From positions 1-5,550 of IMG/VR virus record IMGVR_UViG_3300045988_001679: a DNA stretch of 5,550 bases, one strand, 5' to 3'. The notes beneath the pieces were generated by a model, which saw only the letters and a program-made list of their open reading frames with translations, was not told where the DNA came from and did not search any database. Each line of letters begins with the position of its first letter. Position 1 is the first letter of the stretch. Shown here piece after piece: positions 1 to 5,550 of the stretch. The translations under genes and the position numbers were made by a program. This DNA comes from a virus.

Positions 1-99
1 CTCCCAGATGTCCGTTTTTGATTCCGTCATTGAACGATATCCCGGGTTTGGTTGTTTCTCCGGGTGATGACACGCTTGTTGCATTGAAGTTTGCCCCAA
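1..99. repeat. Terminal redundancy: 1-99 is identical to 5452-5550. This is a circular-genome overlap (unit 5451 bp), not a biological repeat.
   Basis: Exact 99-nt identity at both window ends. The VP1 reading frame is continuous across the junction only if the sequence is circularised at this overlap. Confidence 0.9.
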
Positions 100-868
100 A
101 GTCATGTTGCAGCCGCTCTTCAAGTTTTTCTGTTTTGAACGTTGTTACAGGTGCATTTCCTGTCAGTGCAATTGTTACTTCCGGTCCTCTCTGCGGATAC
201 GGCAGACAACTTGAGAAGTAATCGTGGAATCGGCTTACAGGTAAGCACCGTCCACCTTTGTATGCGTTTTTGAGTGTTGCATCTTTATCATTTTCGTCGT
301 TGTCCTGGTAGTTTACTGTTTCATCTCCCGTTGAGTTTACTGCGGGGTTTCCGACGTTTTGGTCTCTGAAAAATTCGTTCCAGATTTTTACGTATGCTCT
401 TATCGGTAGTGCGTTGATTTCTATGTCTAGCTCTTTTCCTTTTTTAATTCTTGTTGGCACTCCCATGTAGTCAAGGATTCCGTTTGCGTATGGTAATTTT
501 TCTTCTTCGGTTTCGTCTCCTTTGATTCTGATTGTTGGAATCTTGTATGTTTTTGTTGGCATCCACGGATTATCGTCTGCTTCGCCCATGAATCGCTTGA
601 AGTTATCCCATAGGATTCTGTTCGGGCAGAAGAAGTAGTAGAAGTCGATAAATGCATCGTCAAAAACCGGGTATTTCGGTGTGGTCATTCGGATGATTGC
701 CGCTGTATCCACGCTGAAAGTATCGCCGGGTAGTACTTCGTCTACATAGAACGGAATCAGCTTGCCTGCATCGAAGGTTGTCAGAATGTTCTGGTCTCTG
801 TTGAAGCGTGTCCGGCTGACGTGTGTTTCTGGTACTTGGTTGAAGTGTCTCTCATTATTCCGGTTCAT
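1..868 (-). CDS. Major capsid protein VP1 (F-like), N-terminal 289 codons. The gene starts at ATG 868-866, runs off the left edge and continues at 5451 on the circular genome.
   Basis: Minus-strand translation from 868 gives MNRNNERHFNQVPETHVSRTRFNRDQNILTTFDAGKLIPFYVDEVLPGDTFSVDTAAIIRMTTPKYPVFDDAFIDFYYFFCPNRILWDNFKRFMGE... and later ...GGRCLPVSRFHDYFSSCLPYPQRG. These are canonical gokushovirus VP1 N-terminal motifs. The frame is open to position 1 and in phase with the 4673..5524 ORF once 1 is mapped to 5452. The start ATG overlaps the upstream gene stop as ATGA. GGAG lies 11 nt upstream. Confidence 0.93.
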   Translation of the reverse strand, partial: MNRNNERHFNQVPETHVSRTRFNRDQNILTTFDAGKLIPFYVDEVLPGDTFSVDTAAIIRMTTPKYPVFDDAFIDFYYFFCPNRILWDNFKRFMGEADDNPWMPTKTYKIPTIRIKGDETEEEKLPYANGILDYMGVPTRIKKGKELDIEINALPIRAYVKIWNEFFRDQNVGNPAVNSTGDETVNYQDNDENDKDATLKNAYKGGRCLPVSRFHDYFSSCLPYPQRGPEVTIALTGNAPVTTFKTEKLEERLQHDFGANFNATSVSSPGETTKPGISFNDGIKNGHLG

Positions 869-1257
869 TGTTCATTGTTCTCCTCTTGTTTCTTTGGTTC
901 GCTTGCTGCCTTTTCCTGCATTCGCTGCAGTTCCTTTGCGTTGGCTTGTGCTGTTGCCATCATGGCGTGATATTCGTGAATATTGGTAGGCCATTCGGTC
1001 ATATCCACGGTCTCGTCCGTTTTTGCGCTATCTACCAGACTTTTTGCAAACTGCGGGTCAAAGCTAGCCTTGCGGACGATGTTTTTGATGTCGCATTCGT
1101 CTGCGTAGCTTTCGATTTCAGCTTGAATGTCGATTGATTCTGTTTCAATCAGCTTGTTTTCTCCTTCTTTGTCTTTGCCCCAGACGTACTGTTTACGCAT
1201 TTTTTCGCCTGGATTTGAAAAGAAGGGCTCCCGCCCTTCTTCGTATCTCTTATTCAT
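865..1257 (-). CDS. 130-aa acidic protein immediately upstream of and coupled to VP1; possible VP3 internal scaffolding protein. The track gives a 149-aa version from 1314.
   Basis: ATG 1257 preceded by SD GGGAGGG (8-nt spacer) and overlapping the previous stop. Stop TGA overlaps the VP1 ATG (ATGA). Contains YADECDIKNIV, which resembles the E-C-D-I-N motif I recall from Chlamydia-phage/gokushovirus VP3 scaffold proteins. That is memory only, not verified. Confidence 0.5.
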   Translation of the reverse strand: MNKRYEEGREPFFSNPGEKMRKQYVWGKDKEGENKLIETESIDIQAEIESYADECDIKNIVRKASFDPQFAKSLVDSAKTDETVDMTEWPTNIHEYHAMMATAQANAKELQRMQEKAASEPKKQEENNEQ

Positions 1258-1492
1258 GCGTTTTGCCCTCCCAGACTTTTTCCGGCTCGATGCTTCTGAA
1301 TTCGCCGGTTTCATCGTTGAAGTTTGCGATGTGGTAGCCTTTGTAGTCTTCGGGCGACTGGCCTAGAAACGTTTTTTCATCTTTTTCCATGATTTCGCAC
1401 ATTCGTGCAAAGGTCTTGTCGTTTTTGCTCTCGCCGATGTAGCAGTAGCACTTTGCTACGCTGTCGTAGATGCCATAGTATCCGTGAATCAT
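1250..1492 (-). CDS. Hypothetical protein, 80 aa (ORFan)
   Basis: ATG 1492 preceded by SD AAAGGAG (8-nt spacer). Stop TAA 1252-1250 overlaps the next gene start region (ATGAATAA). No recognisable motif. Confidence 0.55.
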   Translation of the reverse strand: MIHGYYGIYDSVAKCYCYIGESKNDKTFARMCEIMEKDEKTFLGQSPEDYKGYHIANFNDETGEFRSIEPEKVWEGKTHE

Positions 1493-1590
1493 CTTTTTTT
1501 CTCCTTTACAGTCTGATGCCGCCTCGCATGGGTTTCTGGCTTAAGTTGATACTCTTTGTTTTGCGTGCCGTCACGTTGAACATTCGTTTG

Positions 1591-1836
1591 TCAGTGCGTA
1601 CTGGCATTTTCTGCCTGTGCTTCATGTGTGTACTCCCTTCTGAGCAGCTCTAGTTCGATGTCATTTGCCCATTTCTTCATAATCCAGATTCGGTCAATGA
1701 TTTTTTTTGCTTCTTCTGAGCTGGAGACTTTTTTTATCATCTTGTATCCAGCTTCTATCTGTTTGTATAGTCTTTCGGCTTCTAGCCTAATATCTTCTTC
1801 GGGCTGGTCTCGTACGTTCCATGTTTTGTGCATCAT
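1591..1836 (-). CDS. Hypothetical protein, 81 aa (ORFan, predicted helical, charged)
   Basis: ATG start with SD AAGGAG 6 nt upstream. Same strand as all the recognisable genes. No recognisable motif. Confidence 0.55.
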   Translation of the reverse strand: MMHKTWNVRDQPEEDIRLEAERLYKQIEAGYKMIKKVSSSEEAKKIIDRIWIMKKWANDIELELLRREYTHEAQAENASTH

Positions 1837-1839
1837 GCT

Positions 1840-1944
1840 TTACTCCTTTTCTTTCAGGATGTGATAGATCTCGTCGAGCTTTTCCAGAACTTTTTTGATC
1901 ATCTGGATTGCTTCCCGCAGATCTTTGACCTTAATCAATGCCAT
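1840..1944 (-). CDS. Micro-ORF, 34 aa (MALIKVKDLREAIQMIKKVLEKLDEIYHILKEKE). Predicted amphipathic helix. Not in the supplied ORF track.
   Basis: ATG 1944 sits 3 nt after the peptidase stop (TAA 1950-1948), with SD AAAGGGGGTG 6 nt upstream. Its own last codons (AAGGAG TAA) form the SD for the next gene (ATG 1836). Fits the coupled gene chain. Confidence 0.45.
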   Translation of the reverse strand: MALIKVKDLREAIQMIKKVLEKLDEIYHILKEKE

Positions 1945-1947
1945 TGG

Positions 1948-2331
1948 TTACACCCCCTTTCTGTATCTATTTTCACGCACATCCACGTGTACGAAGTTGG
2001 TGTATCTGATTATTCCGCCTTGTTCCATGATGCTATCTGCGTACTTTGCAACTTCTTTACTTGAGCGTCCTTTTACTACGATATCGGCGGCCATTCCTTT
2101 GCAATGGTATGAATTTGGTGTTCCACCTACTTTTGTATTCCAGCTCGGTGTGCGGTATCCGCTGTTGATGATGACCGGAGTGTCGAAGTGGTTTCTGATT
2201 GTTTCCAAGATTTCGAGTAGTTTAGGTGCCCACAAGAATTCTTTTGTTTTGTCTTTGCATCTAAACTCTTCAGCTTTGAAGTGTTGCGTTAATCGGTCGT
2301 TGTTTGTTTGGTTTAAGATTGCTGTACTCAT
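1948..2331 (-). CDS. Peptidase M15 family zinc D,D-/L,D-peptidase (Peptidase_M15_3 / VanY-YcbK-like); putative peptidoglycan hydrolase (lysis). 127 aa from ATG 2331. The alternative TTG start at 2412 gives 154 aa.
   Basis: Motifs SGYRTPSWNTKVGGTPNSYHCKGMAADI and FVHVDV match the H...D...H zinc-ligand signature of the M15 family. ATG 2331 is preceded by SD AAGAGGTGG (7-nt spacer) and by the promoter at 2382-2354, which lies inside the longer TTG-initiated ORF. No signal peptide or TM segment. Confidence 0.85.
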   Translation of the reverse strand: MSTAILNQTNNDRLTQHFKAEEFRCKDKTKEFLWAPKLLEILETIRNHFDTPVIINSGYRTPSWNTKVGGTPNSYHCKGMAADIVVKGRSSKEVAKYADSIMEQGGIIRYTNFVHVDVRENRYRKGV

Positions 2332-2353
2332 TTTTTTACCACCTCTTGTTTTT

Positions 2354-2400
2354 TTTATATCATACCCGGCTTGATAAGTCAAGGATTTTTGAAAAAAATT
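2354..2400 (-). promoter_or_regulatory. Sigma70-type promoter on the minus strand: -35 TTGACT (2382-2377), 17-nt spacer, extended -10 TGaTATAAA (2362-2354), AT-rich UP-like tract (2400-2383). Predicted TSS about 2347.
   Basis: Read directly on the minus strand: AATTTTTTTCAAAAATCC TTGACT tatcaagccgggtatga TATAAA aaaaacAAGAGGTGGtaaaaaaATG. Near-consensus hexamers, 17-bp spacing, TGn extended -10, then SD and the ATG of the peptidase. Confidence 0.6.
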
Positions 2401-2433
2401 TTTGACGTTCAAGTCGGATGCCCGCGGCAGGCG

Positions 2434-2536
2434 TTTTCAACATTTTCAACATACTTTTCAACATTTCAACATTGTTAAACTTTAGCATAATAGAGTGTTT
2501 CAACAATTCAACAAGTTTTCAACAAATCTTTCAACA
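2434..2536. repeat. Eight same-orientation copies of TTCAACA (mostly TTTTCAACA) in two clusters of four (2436-2471 and 2499-2536). Start-to-start spacings are 9, 12, 8, 34, 8, 11 and 12 bp, with phased T-tracts. Iteron-like array / curved DNA upstream of the promoter.
   Basis: Copies begin at 2436, 2445, 2457, 2465, 2499, 2507, 2518 and 2530. There is a degenerate ninth copy (TTCAACT) at 2584. TTTTCAACA differs by one base from the DnaA-box consensus TTWTNCACA. Confidence 0.7.
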
Positions 2537-2635
2537 TTTCTTTTCAGCTGTTTTTTACGCTCTGTCGTTATAAAATAGTAGTTTTCAACTTTTCCACATA
2601 CTCTACTACTACGACTACAACAAGTTATATTATAA

Positions 2636-2684
2636 TACGTGCGCACGCGTGCGCGTGTACTTTTCGCGTGTACGTGTGTGCGCG
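2636..2684. repeat. GC-rich strictly alternating pyrimidine/purine tracts (25 nt at 2636-2660; 20 nt at 2665-2684) with a perfect 14-bp palindrome GCGCACGCGTGCGC (2641-2654) and the direct repeat CGCGTGTAC x2. Z-DNA / cruciform-prone element.
   Basis: Sequence tacgtgcgcacgcgtgcgcgtgtac ttttcgcgtgtacgtgtgtgcgcg. This is the only GC-rich island inside an AT-rich non-coding region. Confidence 0.7.
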
Positions 2685-2704
2685 ATTAGAATAATTAGTT
2701 AAAT
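2677..2704. other. Possible dif-like XerC/XerD recombination motif (TGTGCGCGATT AGAATA ATTAGTTAAAT)
   Basis: Partial match to E. coli dif GGTGCGCATAA TGTATA TTATGTTAAAT (GTGCGC in the left arm, GTTAAAT at the right end; about 18/28 ungapped). Gokushovirus prophages of Enterobacteria are reported to integrate at dif. Confidence 0.3.
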
Positions 2705-2744
2705 AGTAATAATTATCACTTTTCACGTGAGACTAAACAATAAT

Positions 2745-2776
2745 AGCCCAGTACCTTACTTGATAGGTACTGGGCT
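2745..2776 (-). terminator. Perfect 11-bp stem / 10-nt loop hairpin (AGCCCAGTACC ... GGTACTGGGCT), 12 nt downstream of the Rep stop. Likely intrinsic terminator closing the genome-long transcription unit; could also be an ssDNA-form priming/ori hairpin.
   Basis: 2745-2755 is the exact reverse complement of 2766-2776. In mRNA sense it is followed by AUUAUUGUUU (U-rich). It sits between the Rep stop (2791-2789) and the AT-rich non-coding region. Confidence 0.5.
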
Positions 2777-2788
2777 AGGTGACACCAA

Positions 2789-3808
2789 TTATAAAATACC
2801 ACGCTTTTTCGTTTGTTTTTTGGTGACACGTTCTTTTGTCTCTAGGATCGTTTTATAGTCCTTTCCTTCCAGCTGTAGACGCTTCTGCTCTATTGCGTTT
2901 TTCTGCCTGTTTTGTTTGATTCTCCACAGTCTTTGTGGGTTTTCTGCTTCCATCTGCTTTTCGTAGTATCTAGGAATTTGTGCTTGTTTTCCGTTGCTGC
3001 ATTGAATGTATCCTTGTTTCCAAATTTCTGCCTTGTGCTCTTGGTAGTAATGGTCTCCAAGGCCCGGCTTTAGACTCATGCAAGCAAATGGCTTTGTTTG
3101 TCCCAACTCGTAGTATGCATTGGCTTTTTTTCCGTCTATTTCGTACATTTTTTTTGTAACATACCCTGCAACATATCTATAGGTTTCTGGAACGGCTTGC
3201 GCTATCTGTATTTGACCCATGCCCCACAGGTCTTTCAACCACTCGCTGGTGTAGTATCCATTGTGGTGAATTTTGTACAAGTTTTTTAGGTCTGTCGGCT
3301 CCCAACCATATAGTATCATGTGATAGTGCGGTCTCGCTGTTTGTTCTCCGTATTCACCCGCTACAAAATAGCGTAATTTGCTCCTGTAAGCCTTTCTGAG
3401 ACGTTTTAAGAATTTTTGAATATCCTCATATAGCAGAATTTGTACGCTGTCTGGGCGCTTCTCTCCCGGCTTCCATGTGTATTGTACTTTTCGCATGATT
3501 TCGCCTGTCTTTACTATCATGCCTGGTACGTGGTCATCGTCATAAGTTAGTGTGATAAACCATACCTGCTCTTTTGGGTAATCTCTTGCTTCCAGCTCGA
3601 TTCGTGTTGTCCAGTCCTCTCGCTGCCTGATTCTGCATCCGATGCATTGTCCGCATGGTATCAACATAACTTTCGGATTATACATCAAATCTTCATATCT
3701 TAGCTGTTTCCCGCTTAACTGAGAAATGCGGGCGAGTGAATACACCCGCCCGCTCACTTCCTTGTTGTTTGGGTTGTACAGCCTGATTAGTGGCTTGTAA
3801 CAACTCAC
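2789..3808 (-). CDS. VP4 rolling-circle replication initiator (HUH Rep), about 339 aa. Start GTG 3808-3806 overlaps the VP2 stop (GTGA). The track version extended to 3979 is less likely.
   Basis: HUH endonuclease motifs in order: WFITLTYDD (motif I), [10 protein letters not shown] (motif II, HxH), [11 protein letters not shown] (motif III, catalytic Tyr). N-terminal Cys cluster SCYKPL...[10 protein letters not shown]. Excellent SD AGGAGGAGGAAG plus a 6-nt A spacer before GTG 3808. The 3979 GTG has no RBS, and the first in-frame ATG is at 3685. Confidence 0.9.
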
Positions 3809-4650
3809 TTTTTTCTTCCTCCTCCTGCGTGGAATTTTCCTCCGCCCGCGTTGAATGGAATTGTTTTTTCTGTATCTTCCATCTGTTCGTATGTTTTTAG
3901 CAGGTCTTTTGTTAGCTCGTATGGGCTTGTATAGCCTTTTGACATTTGGGTTCCTACGGCTTCGGAGAGCTGATACCACGTTGATTTTGCAATGCTTTTA
4001 TTGTAGTAGCTGTTTGGCACGTTGCCGCTTAGCGCAGATACTCCCAGAGCGCTTGATGTTGGCATTCCCATGCTTGCGCCTGTGATTGTTGCACCTGCAC
4101 CTCCCGGTGTGCTTGCTCCGCCCTGTGCGTATGCCAAAATCGGGTTTAGTCCTGCTTTTCGCATATCTTCTACGGCTCTTTGATATGCTGTGTTGCTCAT
4201 TCTTTCTTGGAAATTGCGGTTTGCTAGCGCTTCTGCGCTGTTGTATTGCATTGCGGCGTTTTGTTCGATGTGGTTGTAAATACCCTGTTGGATTGCCCCC
4301 AGCGTGTTATAGCCCATCTGCATGAGCATGTTTTGTCGGTTTGTTTTGCTTTGGAATGCGTTTTGCCCGCCCTGCCAGTTGTAGTATTGACTGAGATATT
4401 TCATTATCTGTTCGTCATTCGTGCCGCCTTCTGCAACGCTTAGTGATGTTCCACCGCCCTTTCCTGTGCTTACGTTGCTTCCTTGGCTGATGTTTTCGCT
4501 TTTTTGGCCGTACATTGATGATAGTCCACCGCCCAGCAGTTGCATCGCTCCGGTTATGACTGCTGGGTTCTGTGCTAACCATGCTCCTGCTTTGGCTGCT
4601 CCACTTGCAAGCATTGCTCCTAGTCCTGCCATTTTAAATATAGCCCGCAT
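3805..4650 (-). CDS. VP2 minor capsid / DNA pilot protein (281 aa)
   Basis: Gly/Ala/Gln-rich protein with the conserved motif [22 protein letters not shown] typical of gokushovirus VP2. Located directly downstream of VP1. Strong SD AAGGAGGAA lies 12 nt before ATG 4650, 22 nt after the VP1 stop. C-terminal [13 protein letters not shown]. Confidence 0.85.
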
Positions 4651-4672
4651 TTCTGCGGGCTTCCTCCTTTCT

Positions 4673-5550
4673 TTACAGTTTTTCCAGACCCGGCACGCTG
4701 TACAGCGGCATGCAGCGAGTGGTTTTGTTCATTACCCTGATTGCCCCGAAGAACTGCGGTTCGTTCTGGACGATTAAAGTTCTTGCGATTTCTGTTTTGT
4801 CCTCGTTCATCCACTCTTGGCTCAGTGTCGGCACGGTGCTGTAGTTGTCCGCATAGTGCCAGAAGTCTAGCGTGCCTTCTGCATTGCTCCGCATTTTACC
4901 GCTTACCCGGTTAGGCTTCATTCGGTAGTCTGCCCAGGCTTCCTGGTAGCCGAACGTTTCATTATCTGTGCTTGTGCCGGTCAGCATGATTTCTTTCTTT
5001 TTGACAGGCTGTTCGCCCAGATTTGCAAACTGCGGGAAGTAGTAGTCCAGTCTGTCACTGCGGCTCCAGAATCGTTCCAAGCCTTGCTGATAGCTGTGAT
5101 TATGGCGAACACACATAACACCGATAACAAACCCGTGTTCCTCAAAGCTTTTTGTGAAGCTGCTTTCGTTAATCGGTGTGACAGACATTGCACCGGTTTC
5201 ACCGATAGGCGTATCGTCTGCGGTCTGCTGCCCGCTGGTCTGTACGATTTGGTTGATGTTTACATGATAGCGTCCGCCACCCAGATACTCCGGCACCTGA
5301 ACCGTTTTATCGCTGATGCTTACGCCAAACAGTGTTCGTACCTGTTCACGGTATCGGCTGCCTCCACGGGCCAGTGCTTCATAGTAGTGCTGAACTGCAA
5401 ATGCCTGACGCAGCTGGTTGATTGTTGCGGCTTCGATTCCCGTTAGGTCTGCTCCCAGATGTCCGTTTTTGATTCCGTCATTGAACGATATCCCGGGTTT
5501 GGTTGTTTCTCCGGGTGATGACACGCTTGTTGCATTGAAGTTTGCCCCAA
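4673..5550 (-). CDS. Major capsid protein VP1, C-terminal part (stop TAA at 4675-4673). Bases 5452-5550 duplicate 1-99. The full gene is 1647 nt / 548 aa across the junction.
   Basis: Track ORF 4673..5524 (the GTG 'start' is an internal Val codon). Conserved gokushovirus VP1 C-terminal blocks: [107 protein letters not shown]. Confidence 0.93.
5452..5550. repeat. Second copy of the terminal redundancy (same bases as 1-99)
   Basis: See the 1-99 feature. Confidence 0.9.

Follow-up and report, generated by a model that had tools for sequence, protein, structure and literature searches.

In rolling-circle plasmids, the single-strand origin (sso) is usually located upstream of the double-strand origin (dso). 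For other microviruses, it has been proposed that the negative strand is initiated at intergenic hairpins, which show compensatory changes (PMC9865509). Gokushoviruses are the dominant single-stranded DNA (ssDNA) phages of animal guts, and no mapped gokushovirus replication origin was found in the literature searched. We analyzed a GC-rich element of a gokushovirus genome, the IMG/VR record IMGVR_UViG_3300045988_001679, positions 1 to 5,550; this whole stretch is called the window. The element, named the GC hairpin here, is a real, conserved, and strand-specific hairpin with Z-DNA-prone stems, and it is probably a single-strand signal of the origin region.

All recognisable genes of the window were on its minus strand, and the plus strand is referred to as the non-coding or antisense strand. 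The GC-rich stretch is one member of a conserved family of DNA hairpins that occupy the non-coding origin region in gut gokushoviruses and have apparently not been described before. Neither this hairpin, nor the neighbouring hairpin with a CTTGATAG loop (hairpin 1), nor the strand polarity of gokushoviruses was described in the literature searched. Unusual composition and polarity set the GC hairpin apart from an ordinary palindrome.

The GC hairpin in the window and in related genomes

The element consisted of two runs of strictly alternating purines and pyrimidines (Pu/Py), 26 and 20 nt in length (Table 1). The original prediction, made from the letters of the window, had counted 25 and 20 positions; the second value was correct and the first was one position too short. 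The perfect 14-bp palindrome GCGCACGCGTGCGC and the two copies of CGCGTGTAC, at 2652 and 2665, were found as it had described. The GC content was 63% in 2636-2684 compared to 35% in the intergenic region 2340-2790 and 45% in the whole window, confirming a GC-rich patch in an AT-rich region. In 1000 first-order Markov simulated genomes, the longest alternating run had a mean of 12.8 nt and never exceeded 23 nt; therefore, adjacent runs of 26 and 20 nt were far beyond chance. No second GC-rich alternating run of at least 12 nt was present anywhere in the window genome.

The predicted stable ssDNA hairpin was obtained by folding of the plus strand, which gave an 18-bp stem with a 2-nt bulge and a 9-nt loop at -16.6 kcal/mol, compared to -9.6 kcal/mol for the minus strand. 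The palindrome was a by-product of the alternation, and the functional fold paired arm 1 against arm 2. Dinucleotide-preserving shuffles of the surrounding 121 nt gave unremarkable energy z-scores (-1.3 and +1.2). These local values were uninformative because the shuffles keep the CG/TG dinucleotides and any (CG/TG)n mixture pairs with itself. When the whole 366-nt non-coding region was compared with shuffles, the z-score was -3.7 for the plus strand (0 of 100 shuffles) and -1.6 for the minus strand. Since the local z-scores were unimpressive, the case for the hairpin rests on comparison with relatives and not on energy.

To this end, 118 microvirus genomes with an identifiable VP1 were compared. 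The set was assembled by scanning IMG/VR with the motif CTACTACNNCTACAACAAG of the neighbouring iteron module and with the hairpin pattern, and GenBank relatives were added. A bipartite GC-rich alternating block was present at the equivalent position in 88 of the 118 genomes, with VP1 identities from about 35% to 100%. Each block was composed of two uninterrupted alternating CG/TG arms of 14-38 nt (mostly 17-26 nt), separated by 0-6 nt. The junction was mostly GTTTC, CTAC, TATC, or ATTA, and was mostly T-rich. The block occurred once per genome, always in the VP4-adjacent non-coding region, and essentially none was found elsewhere in those genomes.

All 54 unique versions folded into one continuous hairpin of 13-32 bp with energies from -11 to -32 kcal/mol (mean -21.8), compared to a mean of -15.9 kcal/mol for the opposite strand. 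The architecture was constant among relatives while the primary sequence drifted. The pattern GCGCGTGCGCG-N3-CGCGCGYGTGCGC had 34 matches in 2.9 million IMG/VR contigs, and 33 of these were microviruses, including phages with only 31-42% VP1/VP4 identity and without the neighbouring module. Beyond the CG/TG alternation and the short loop, nothing was conserved in the GC hairpin.

Among close relatives, the element was either present or missing as one cleanly delimited cassette of about 60 nt, next to other small hairpin cassettes. Such structured cassettes were observed between the same landmarks in L002 (1405-1490), in the L013/L014 type, and in L030, L051, L110, L044, and L080. Examples in relatives were CGGCGCTTGTGAGCTTGCGAACAATAGCGCCG and C-tract/G-tract hairpins such as CCCCCTTGCTAGGGGG, and several carried CTTG in the loop. 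In some relatives, extra unstructured copies of ACTTGATAGACTGAATAG were located just 3' of the GC hairpin.

Pairing between the arms and strand asymmetry

Energy alone cannot prove selection, because any (CG/TG)n arms pair, and partner statistics were needed. Chimeric arms and alternation-preserving shuffles folded at -19.2 and -19.0 kcal/mol, respectively, compared to -21.8 kcal/mol for the native arms (mean z = -1.2). In the partner statistics, stem A faced T in 96 of 107 cases, although T made up only 33% of the stem pyrimidines. Two loop-anchored alignments were used, in which 99.1% and 99.0% of the cells formed standard pairs on the non-coding strand. In these alignments, 18 and 17 cells were changed on both sides, values reached by 0 of 500 shuffles. 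When the register was slid by 2 nt, 88-96% of the cells still paired, but the double changes dropped to 1-4. The A-T partnering, the double changes, and the register test together identify the arms as a true, maintained inverted repeat. The compensatory changes that the original prediction had asked about were therefore present, both as double-changed cells and as A-T compensation.

The stem contained G at.43, C at.34, T at.17, and A at.07 (77% G+C), compared to T.51, C.20, G.17, and A.12 (63% A+T) at silent sites of the non-coding strand. The GC content of the stem is held against the mutation pressure of the genome.

The pairing was also asymmetric between the strands. On the non-coding (window plus) strand, 218 stem pairs were G·T and 11 were A·C, with G·T accounting for about 20% of all pairs. 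The G·T pairs of the plus strand correspond to C·A mismatches on the coding strand. The T-rich version of the GC hairpin was on the non-coding strand in 88 of 88 genomes, and this polarity was unchanged in 10 hairpin-bearing genomes whose adjacent iteron module lies on the coding strand. Counted from the loop, pairs 6 and 9 were conserved as wobbles in each of the two loop classes; T·G was present in 19/22 and 16/21, and G·T in 14/22 and 13/21.

A strand bias of this kind could also be produced by C-to-T mutation in a largely non-functional palindromic microsatellite, shaped by slippage expansion, inherent self-complementarity, and recombination between co-infecting phages. The mutation bias has the right sign for this explanation, the arm lengths of 14-38 nt vary in steps that fit slippage, and one relative (L039) has lost the loop. 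The clean presence or absence of the cassette between close relatives, its absence from 30 of 118 genomes, and a module inversion breakpoint located exactly at the hairpin end are also in line with it. However, the element persists at 35-45% VP1 identity against strong AT-ward pressure, and it is always a single copy with one polarity in the VP4-adjacent non-coding region. A·C pairs were depleted about 6-fold (11 compared to about 72 expected under random placement), whereas T·G was barely depleted, and the two wobble positions were the majority state in both loop classes. We consider a largely non-functional microsatellite unlikely.

The alternation itself raises the question of duplex structures, and the original prediction had named the element a Z-DNA or cruciform candidate. 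A Z-DNA-forming sequence is an unbroken Pu/Py tract of at least about 12 bp that is rich in CG and TG/CA steps, and the runs of 26 and 20 nt are of this kind. By our own two-state estimate, the B-to-Z transition would occur at sigma of about -0.04 in a 5.45-kb circle. In the duplex replicative form, supercoiling might drive Z-DNA in each arm or extrude a cruciform, which would absorb negative supercoils beside the AT-rich element and the iteron module and so tune origin opening or VP4 nicking. Each arm of the 54 unique versions is an unbroken CG/TG alternation of the classic Z-forming type, which a hairpin does not need. The block also lies directly beside the AT-rich end of the module (Table 1), and AT-rich flanks favour C-type cruciform extrusion.

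However, Z-DNA requires no fixed central loop, equal arms, or A-T compensation between arms, and it is strand-symmetric, whereas TG was on the non-coding strand in 88 of 88 genomes. The effective superhelicity in vivo is usually lower than -0.04, and the literature searched gave no link between microviruses and Z-DNA. In the duplex inverted repeat, Watson-Crick pairs make up about 80%, and the other pairs, about 20%, are G·T on one strand but C·A on the opposite strand, so that one arm of a cruciform would contain about 20% C·A mismatches. The candidate status of the element thus stands with respect to sequence, and the strand asymmetry, the conserved central loop, and the A-T compensation are left unexplained by it. 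A supercoil-driven role appears quite unlikely to us.

Tolerance of G·U is the usual signature of RNA structure, and an RNA-level role was considered, with a G·U hairpin serving in an antisense transcript as a terminator, stabiliser, or regulatory RNA, or acting as an mRNA barrier. With RNA parameters, the non-coding sense folded at a mean of -37.0 kcal/mol (window, -36.2), compared to -24.5 kcal/mol (window, -17.2) for the coding sense. Against this role, no consistent upstream promoter was found on the non-coding strand, and the upstream neighbour differs between lineages. A promoter scan detected no sigma-70-like promoter feeding the GC hairpin and none in its stem. A U-tract was missing after the full hairpin on either strand, and Rfam 15 gave only noise on 2300-2820 (best, mir-3149 at 21.7 bits compared to the threshold of 100, E = 0.15). 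The function of VP4 terminator appears to be already filled by hairpin 1. An RNA-level role is highly improbable.

As an intrinsic terminator, the GC hairpin was rejected, since neither strand has a T tract after the full hairpin. The terminator scan flagged only an internal 6-bp sub-hairpin and, separately, hairpin 1.

Hairpin 1, the iteron module, and the surrounding genes

Hairpin 1 sits 60 nt downstream of the GC hairpin on the plus strand and abuts the stop codon of VP4, the replication initiator. Its stem differed by lineage (CCCAGTACC, GGGCCTAATC, CAGCCAAGTA) with covarying positions, and its loop was always CTTGATAG, followed by (A/C)(G/T)TGACAC. Of the 118 genomes, 94 had this loop sequence on the non-coding strand and 0 had it on the coding strand. 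CTTGATAG contains CTTGATA, the core of the phiX174 origin (CAACTTG^ATATT; phiX174 ori CAACTTGATATT). Apart from this core, the window had no significant similarity to the 30-nt phiX174 origin. CTTGATA is the cleavage site in both phiX174 and pC194. The minimal rolling-circle origin of pC194 contains the same motif (PMC7072734). On the minus strand, hairpin 1 resembled a VP4 terminator.

Both hairpins were present in 71 genomes, and in each of these the GC hairpin was on the 5' side of hairpin 1, on the same strand. A spacer of 19-190 nt separated its end from the CTTGATAG motif and sometimes contained extra small hairpin cassettes. The loops of the GC hairpin varied (TTT, CTAC, TATC, ATTA, or 8-9 nt) and had no conserved nick motif. 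Judged from its sequence, the CTTGATAG hairpin is built like a Rep nick hairpin and the GC block is not; the VP4 nick site would be in the CTTGATAG loop. The original prediction had named a Rep recognition or nicking hairpin, a complementary-strand priming site, or a packaging signal as uses of this kind of element; with variable loops that lack a nick motif and an invariant CTTGATAG loop in its neighbour, a nicking role is unlikely.

The GC hairpin could instead be an accessory ssDNA recognition site for VP4 or another protein, such as an enhancer of termination and re-circularisation, a packaging landmark, or a wobble hairpin read by an HUH enzyme as in REP/RAYT systems and IS200/IS605 ends. 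Its fixed polarity, its position close to the candidate nick hairpin, and the wobbles conserved at pairs 6 and 9 in both loop classes favour such a site, and HUH enzymes are known to read imperfect hairpins. On the other hand, the spacing from the nick hairpin is variable (19-190 nt), the loop sequence is not conserved, and the GC hairpin is missing in a quarter of the genomes that keep VP4 and hairpin 1. A second hairpin is not known to be required by phiX174-type initiators. Protein recognition as the main function was thus judged improbable.

Upstream of the GC hairpin, a module of approximately 230 nt was conserved in more than 100 contigs, and it also holds CTACTACnnCTACAACAAG. Five of its iterons matched the relaxed DnaA box TTWTNCACA with at most 1 mismatch, all on one strand and within 165 nt. 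The tandem DnaA-box-like sites TTTTCAACT and TTTTCCACA were followed by a 4-nt spacer and then CTACTACTACGACTAC (2581-2637). The published search rule for a basal unwinding system comprises a DnaA box with at most 2 mismatches, a spacer of 0-16 bp, and at least 3 NAN trios with the consensus 3'-GAT-5' (PMC8287927). The module of the window satisfied this rule. It therefore resembles the unwinding system of a bacterial oriC, and its motifs suggest that host DnaA may be recruited. The relative orientation of box and trios agrees with that of the Bacillus subtilis oriC.

The module was found in either orientation relative to the genes, even at 85% identical VP4 (L009, L067, and L109 compared to the window). 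Orientation variants were also seen in L257 and in L008-type loci. One inversion breakpoint coincided exactly with the GC hairpin end, and the other was at a short ACGCGCAC-containing sequence. The GC hairpin never flipped although the adjacent module inverts. Base skew was equal in genomes with opposite module orientations, which makes it unlikely that the module is a rolling-circle origin setting the packaged strand.

The original prediction had also placed the GC hairpin next to a dif-like motif. This motif was the AT-rich end of the module, and its similarity to dif, a 28-bp site in which a 6-bp centre is flanked by 11-bp arms, was at chance level. In 2591-2700, the best ungapped match to the Escherichia coli or B. 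subtilis dif was 15/28, and comparison with the XerD arm was likewise at chance level. The best match of the genome, 18/28, was equal to that of shuffled genomes. No relative was detected among 185,579 genomes scanned on the basis of VP4, and a motif scan of genome contigs, with at least 120 loci, had VP1/VP4 or the module in none among the matches listed. An association with dif/XerCD was rejected on the basis of the chance-level matches and the absence of prophage copies in these scans. The 18/28 match to the E. coli dif, TGTGCGCGATTAGAATAATTAGTTAAAT at 2677-2704 on the plus strand, overlapped the 3' end of arm 2, and its GTTAAAT half was not conserved in relatives.

The window ends were identical over 99 nt (1-99 and 5452-5550, exact), indicating a circularly permuted complete genome of 5,451 nt that is circular. 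The closest relatives by megablast/blastn were gut gokushoviruses from the faeces of pig, human, and monkey. Relatives H22-H26 aligned to the window only in the non-coding region, at 80-85% DNA identity, their genes being too diverged. The GC-rich element was inside the sole long non-coding region (2332-2788); only a spurious 48-aa open reading frame touched it, and the region is therefore non-coding. The M15 peptidase gene was directly downstream of this region, and other genes occupied the same place in some relatives. Outside the GC hairpin, CGCG was scarce (2 observed compared to 13.9 expected from base frequencies), and CpG was not depleted genome-wide (269 compared to 275 expected). The features of the window are listed in Table 1.

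Table 1. Positions of the hairpins, the module, and the genes in the window (strand. where no strand applies).
Feature	Position	Strand	Remark
Arm 1, uninterrupted alternating Pu/Py	2635-2660	+	2638-2655 pair with arm 2
Palindrome GCGCACGCGTGCGC in arm 1	2641-2654	.	local hairpin only in the weaker minus-strand fold
Loop TGTACTTTT	2656-2664	+	3-4 nt and mostly T-rich in relatives
Arm 2, 20-nt alternating run	2665-2684	+	2-nt bulge at 2670-2671
AT-rich spacer, GC hairpin to CTTGATAG hairpin	2685-2743	.
Hairpin 1	2744-2777	+	stem of 12-13 bp, TAGCCCAGTACC/GGTACTGGGCTA; CTTGATAG exposed in the loop (2759-2766)
Candidate VP4 nick site CTTG^ATA	between 2762 and 2763	+
Conserved AGGTGACACC	2777-2786	+	follows hairpin 1 directly and is 2 nt outside the VP4 stop codon
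Conserved module	2434-2637	+	about 10 TTCAACA iterons (TTTTCAACA, one-mismatch DnaA-box-like)
DnaA box TTTTCCACA	2590-2598	+	perfect match to the relaxed consensus
CTACTACTACGACTACAACAAG	2603-2624	+	complement reads 3'-GAT-5' three times, DnaA-trio-like
AT-rich TTATATTATAATA	2625-2637	+	13 bp, module end
VP1, major capsid protein	wraps the window ends (spans the circular junction)	-	Pfam Phage_F
VP2	3805-4650	-
VP4, replication initiator, HUH Rep	2789-3685	-	Pfam REP_ORF2-G2P; 3' end adjoins the non-coding region
VP3, scaffold	865-1314	-
VP5	1250-1492	-
M15 peptidase	1948-2331	-	Peptidase_M15_3, cell-wall hydrolase-like

Complementary-strand initiation, packaged strand, and known systems

Tentatively, we regard the GC hairpin as a structural ssDNA signal in the origin region, the most likely purpose of which is to initiate the complementary strand. 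This strand-specific hairpin, whose alternating CG/TG stem is about 18-20 bp long (18 bp in the window) and closes a small and mostly T-rich loop, folds on the antisense strand, which is the strand with CTTGATA in the loop of hairpin 1. It would act once this strand is single-stranded, either when displaced in rolling-circle replication or in the virion. There, its stable duplex may mark the place at which synthesis of the complementary strand is started or positioned, a function equivalent to that of the sso in rolling-circle plasmids and of the phiX174 and G4 intergenic hairpins. The priming role is putative; the hairpin itself, its conservation and compensatory changes, its fixed polarity, and its fixed place 5' of hairpin 1 are established by the comparison of genomes.

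This reading is favoured by the polarity of the hairpin, by its location just on the 5' side of the presumed nick site, by its gain and loss in the manner of a cassette, and by the precedents of phiX174, G4, and the small microviruses. As in an sso, the structure was formed on one strand only (218 compared to 11 pairs; 88 of 88 genomes; -21.8 compared to -15.9 kcal/mol), with the caveat that mutation bias has the same sign. It is also non-coding and just upstream of the putative nick site in 71 of 71 genomes.

Several observations weigh against complementary-strand initiation. The GC hairpin was absent in 30 of 118 genomes and was an indel between close relatives (L044/L080 compared to L012), and it is therefore dispensable or replaceable. 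In a distant L247-type lineage, a variant loop hairpin was 5' and not 3' of the GC hairpin. No conserved priming motif was found in the GC hairpin, neither ssoA RS_B or CS-6, nor a promoter-like stem, nor a fixed primase trinucleotide. The G·T excess is partly expected from the genome-wide C-to-T bias on the non-coding strand; the ratio of G·T to A·C expected from this bias was about 3.7:1 by a rough estimate, compared to about 20:1 observed, and many of the sequences are related by descent. Strand-specific selection on the GC hairpin is supported but not proven. The selection and mutation-bias readings both imply that the antisense strand is exposed as a single strand. Microviridae are conventionally positive-sense, in which case the poorly pairing coding strand would be the single-stranded one. 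Finally, a hairpin alone needs no perfect Pu/Py alternation, and something else also shapes the sequence, such as Z-DNA potential, slippage, or protein recognition. Because complementary-strand initiation leaves the perfect alternation unexplained, the rival explanations keep real weight.

Three independent clues, namely the strand on which the hairpin pairs, the strand of CTTGATAG (94 compared to 0), and the silent-site composition, point to a negative-sense reading of the clade. The coding strand was very A-rich (A.373, T.178), a property shared across the clade and by phiMH2K. At fourfold-degenerate sites of the coding strand, A and T were.51 and.12 in this phage and.47 and.24 in phiMH2K. 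In the comparison phages, the coding (virion) strand was T-rich, with T.63 and A.07 in phiX174, T.52 and A.24 in Chp2, and T.65 and A.28 in SpV4. At silent sites, the base order of the non-coding strand of the clade was T>C>G>A, as in the virion strand of phiX174. These clues suggest that the antisense strand is the one that becomes single-stranded. It is possible, rather than probable, that this clade nicks, displaces, and packages the strand complementary to its mRNAs and thus represents negative-sense Microviridae, with the GC and CTTGATAG hairpins as its single-strand and double-strand origin signals and an oriC-like DnaA module beside them.

If true, the interpretation of genome orientation, annotation, and mutation spectra in Microviridae would change, since this polarity is opposite to the textbook polarity of the family. 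The wobble asymmetry would be a built-in marker of the strand that is read single-stranded. Cis elements would also be supplied for replicons or reverse genetics of uncultured gut microviruses. The GC hairpin, the CTTGATAG-loop hairpin, and the iteron/DnaA-box-like module provide a concrete and testable map of a gokushovirus origin region.

Compared with known systems, palindromes read by HUH proteins (REP with RAYT, IS200/IS605 ends, and CRESS-virus stem-loops) are likewise short, GC-rich, imperfect one-strand hairpins with conserved wobbles in HUH-replicated elements. Unlike them, the GC hairpin has no conserved cleavage motif within or beside it and occurs as a single copy, and the nick-like motif is in a different hairpin. 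With Z-DNA-forming d(CG)n/d(TG)n tracts and cruciform repeats, it shares the perfect Pu/Py alternation of 20-26 bp per arm, the inverted-repeat layout, and the AT-rich flanks. It differs from them in its bipartite loop design, its compensatory A-T pairs, and its strict strand asymmetry, and one arm of a cruciform would be mismatched.

The plasmid origins ssoA, ssoU, ssoT, and ssoW are 150-300 nt long with RS_B and CS-6 or promoter-like motifs, whereas the GC hairpin is about 45 nt without such motifs and its priming is putative. Similar to these origins, it has a specific orientation, precedes the presumed nick site of the displaced strand by a short distance, and behaves as a cassette that is interchangeable and individually dispensable. 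The complementary-strand origins of ssDNA phages include the n'/PriA assembly hairpin of phiX174, the primase hairpins of G4, hairpins B/C of Ff phages, and the intergenic hairpins of small microviruses (PMC9865509). The GC hairpin has no sequence similarity to these, and its stem consists purely of an alternating CG/TG repeat. In phiX174 and G4, the hairpins pair on the coding (virion) strand, whereas the GC hairpin pairs on the antisense strand and is absent from a quarter of relatives. In common with the complementary-strand origins, it is a stable, strand-specific intergenic hairpin of a small circular ssDNA phage, with compensatory changes in its stem and other origin signals nearby.

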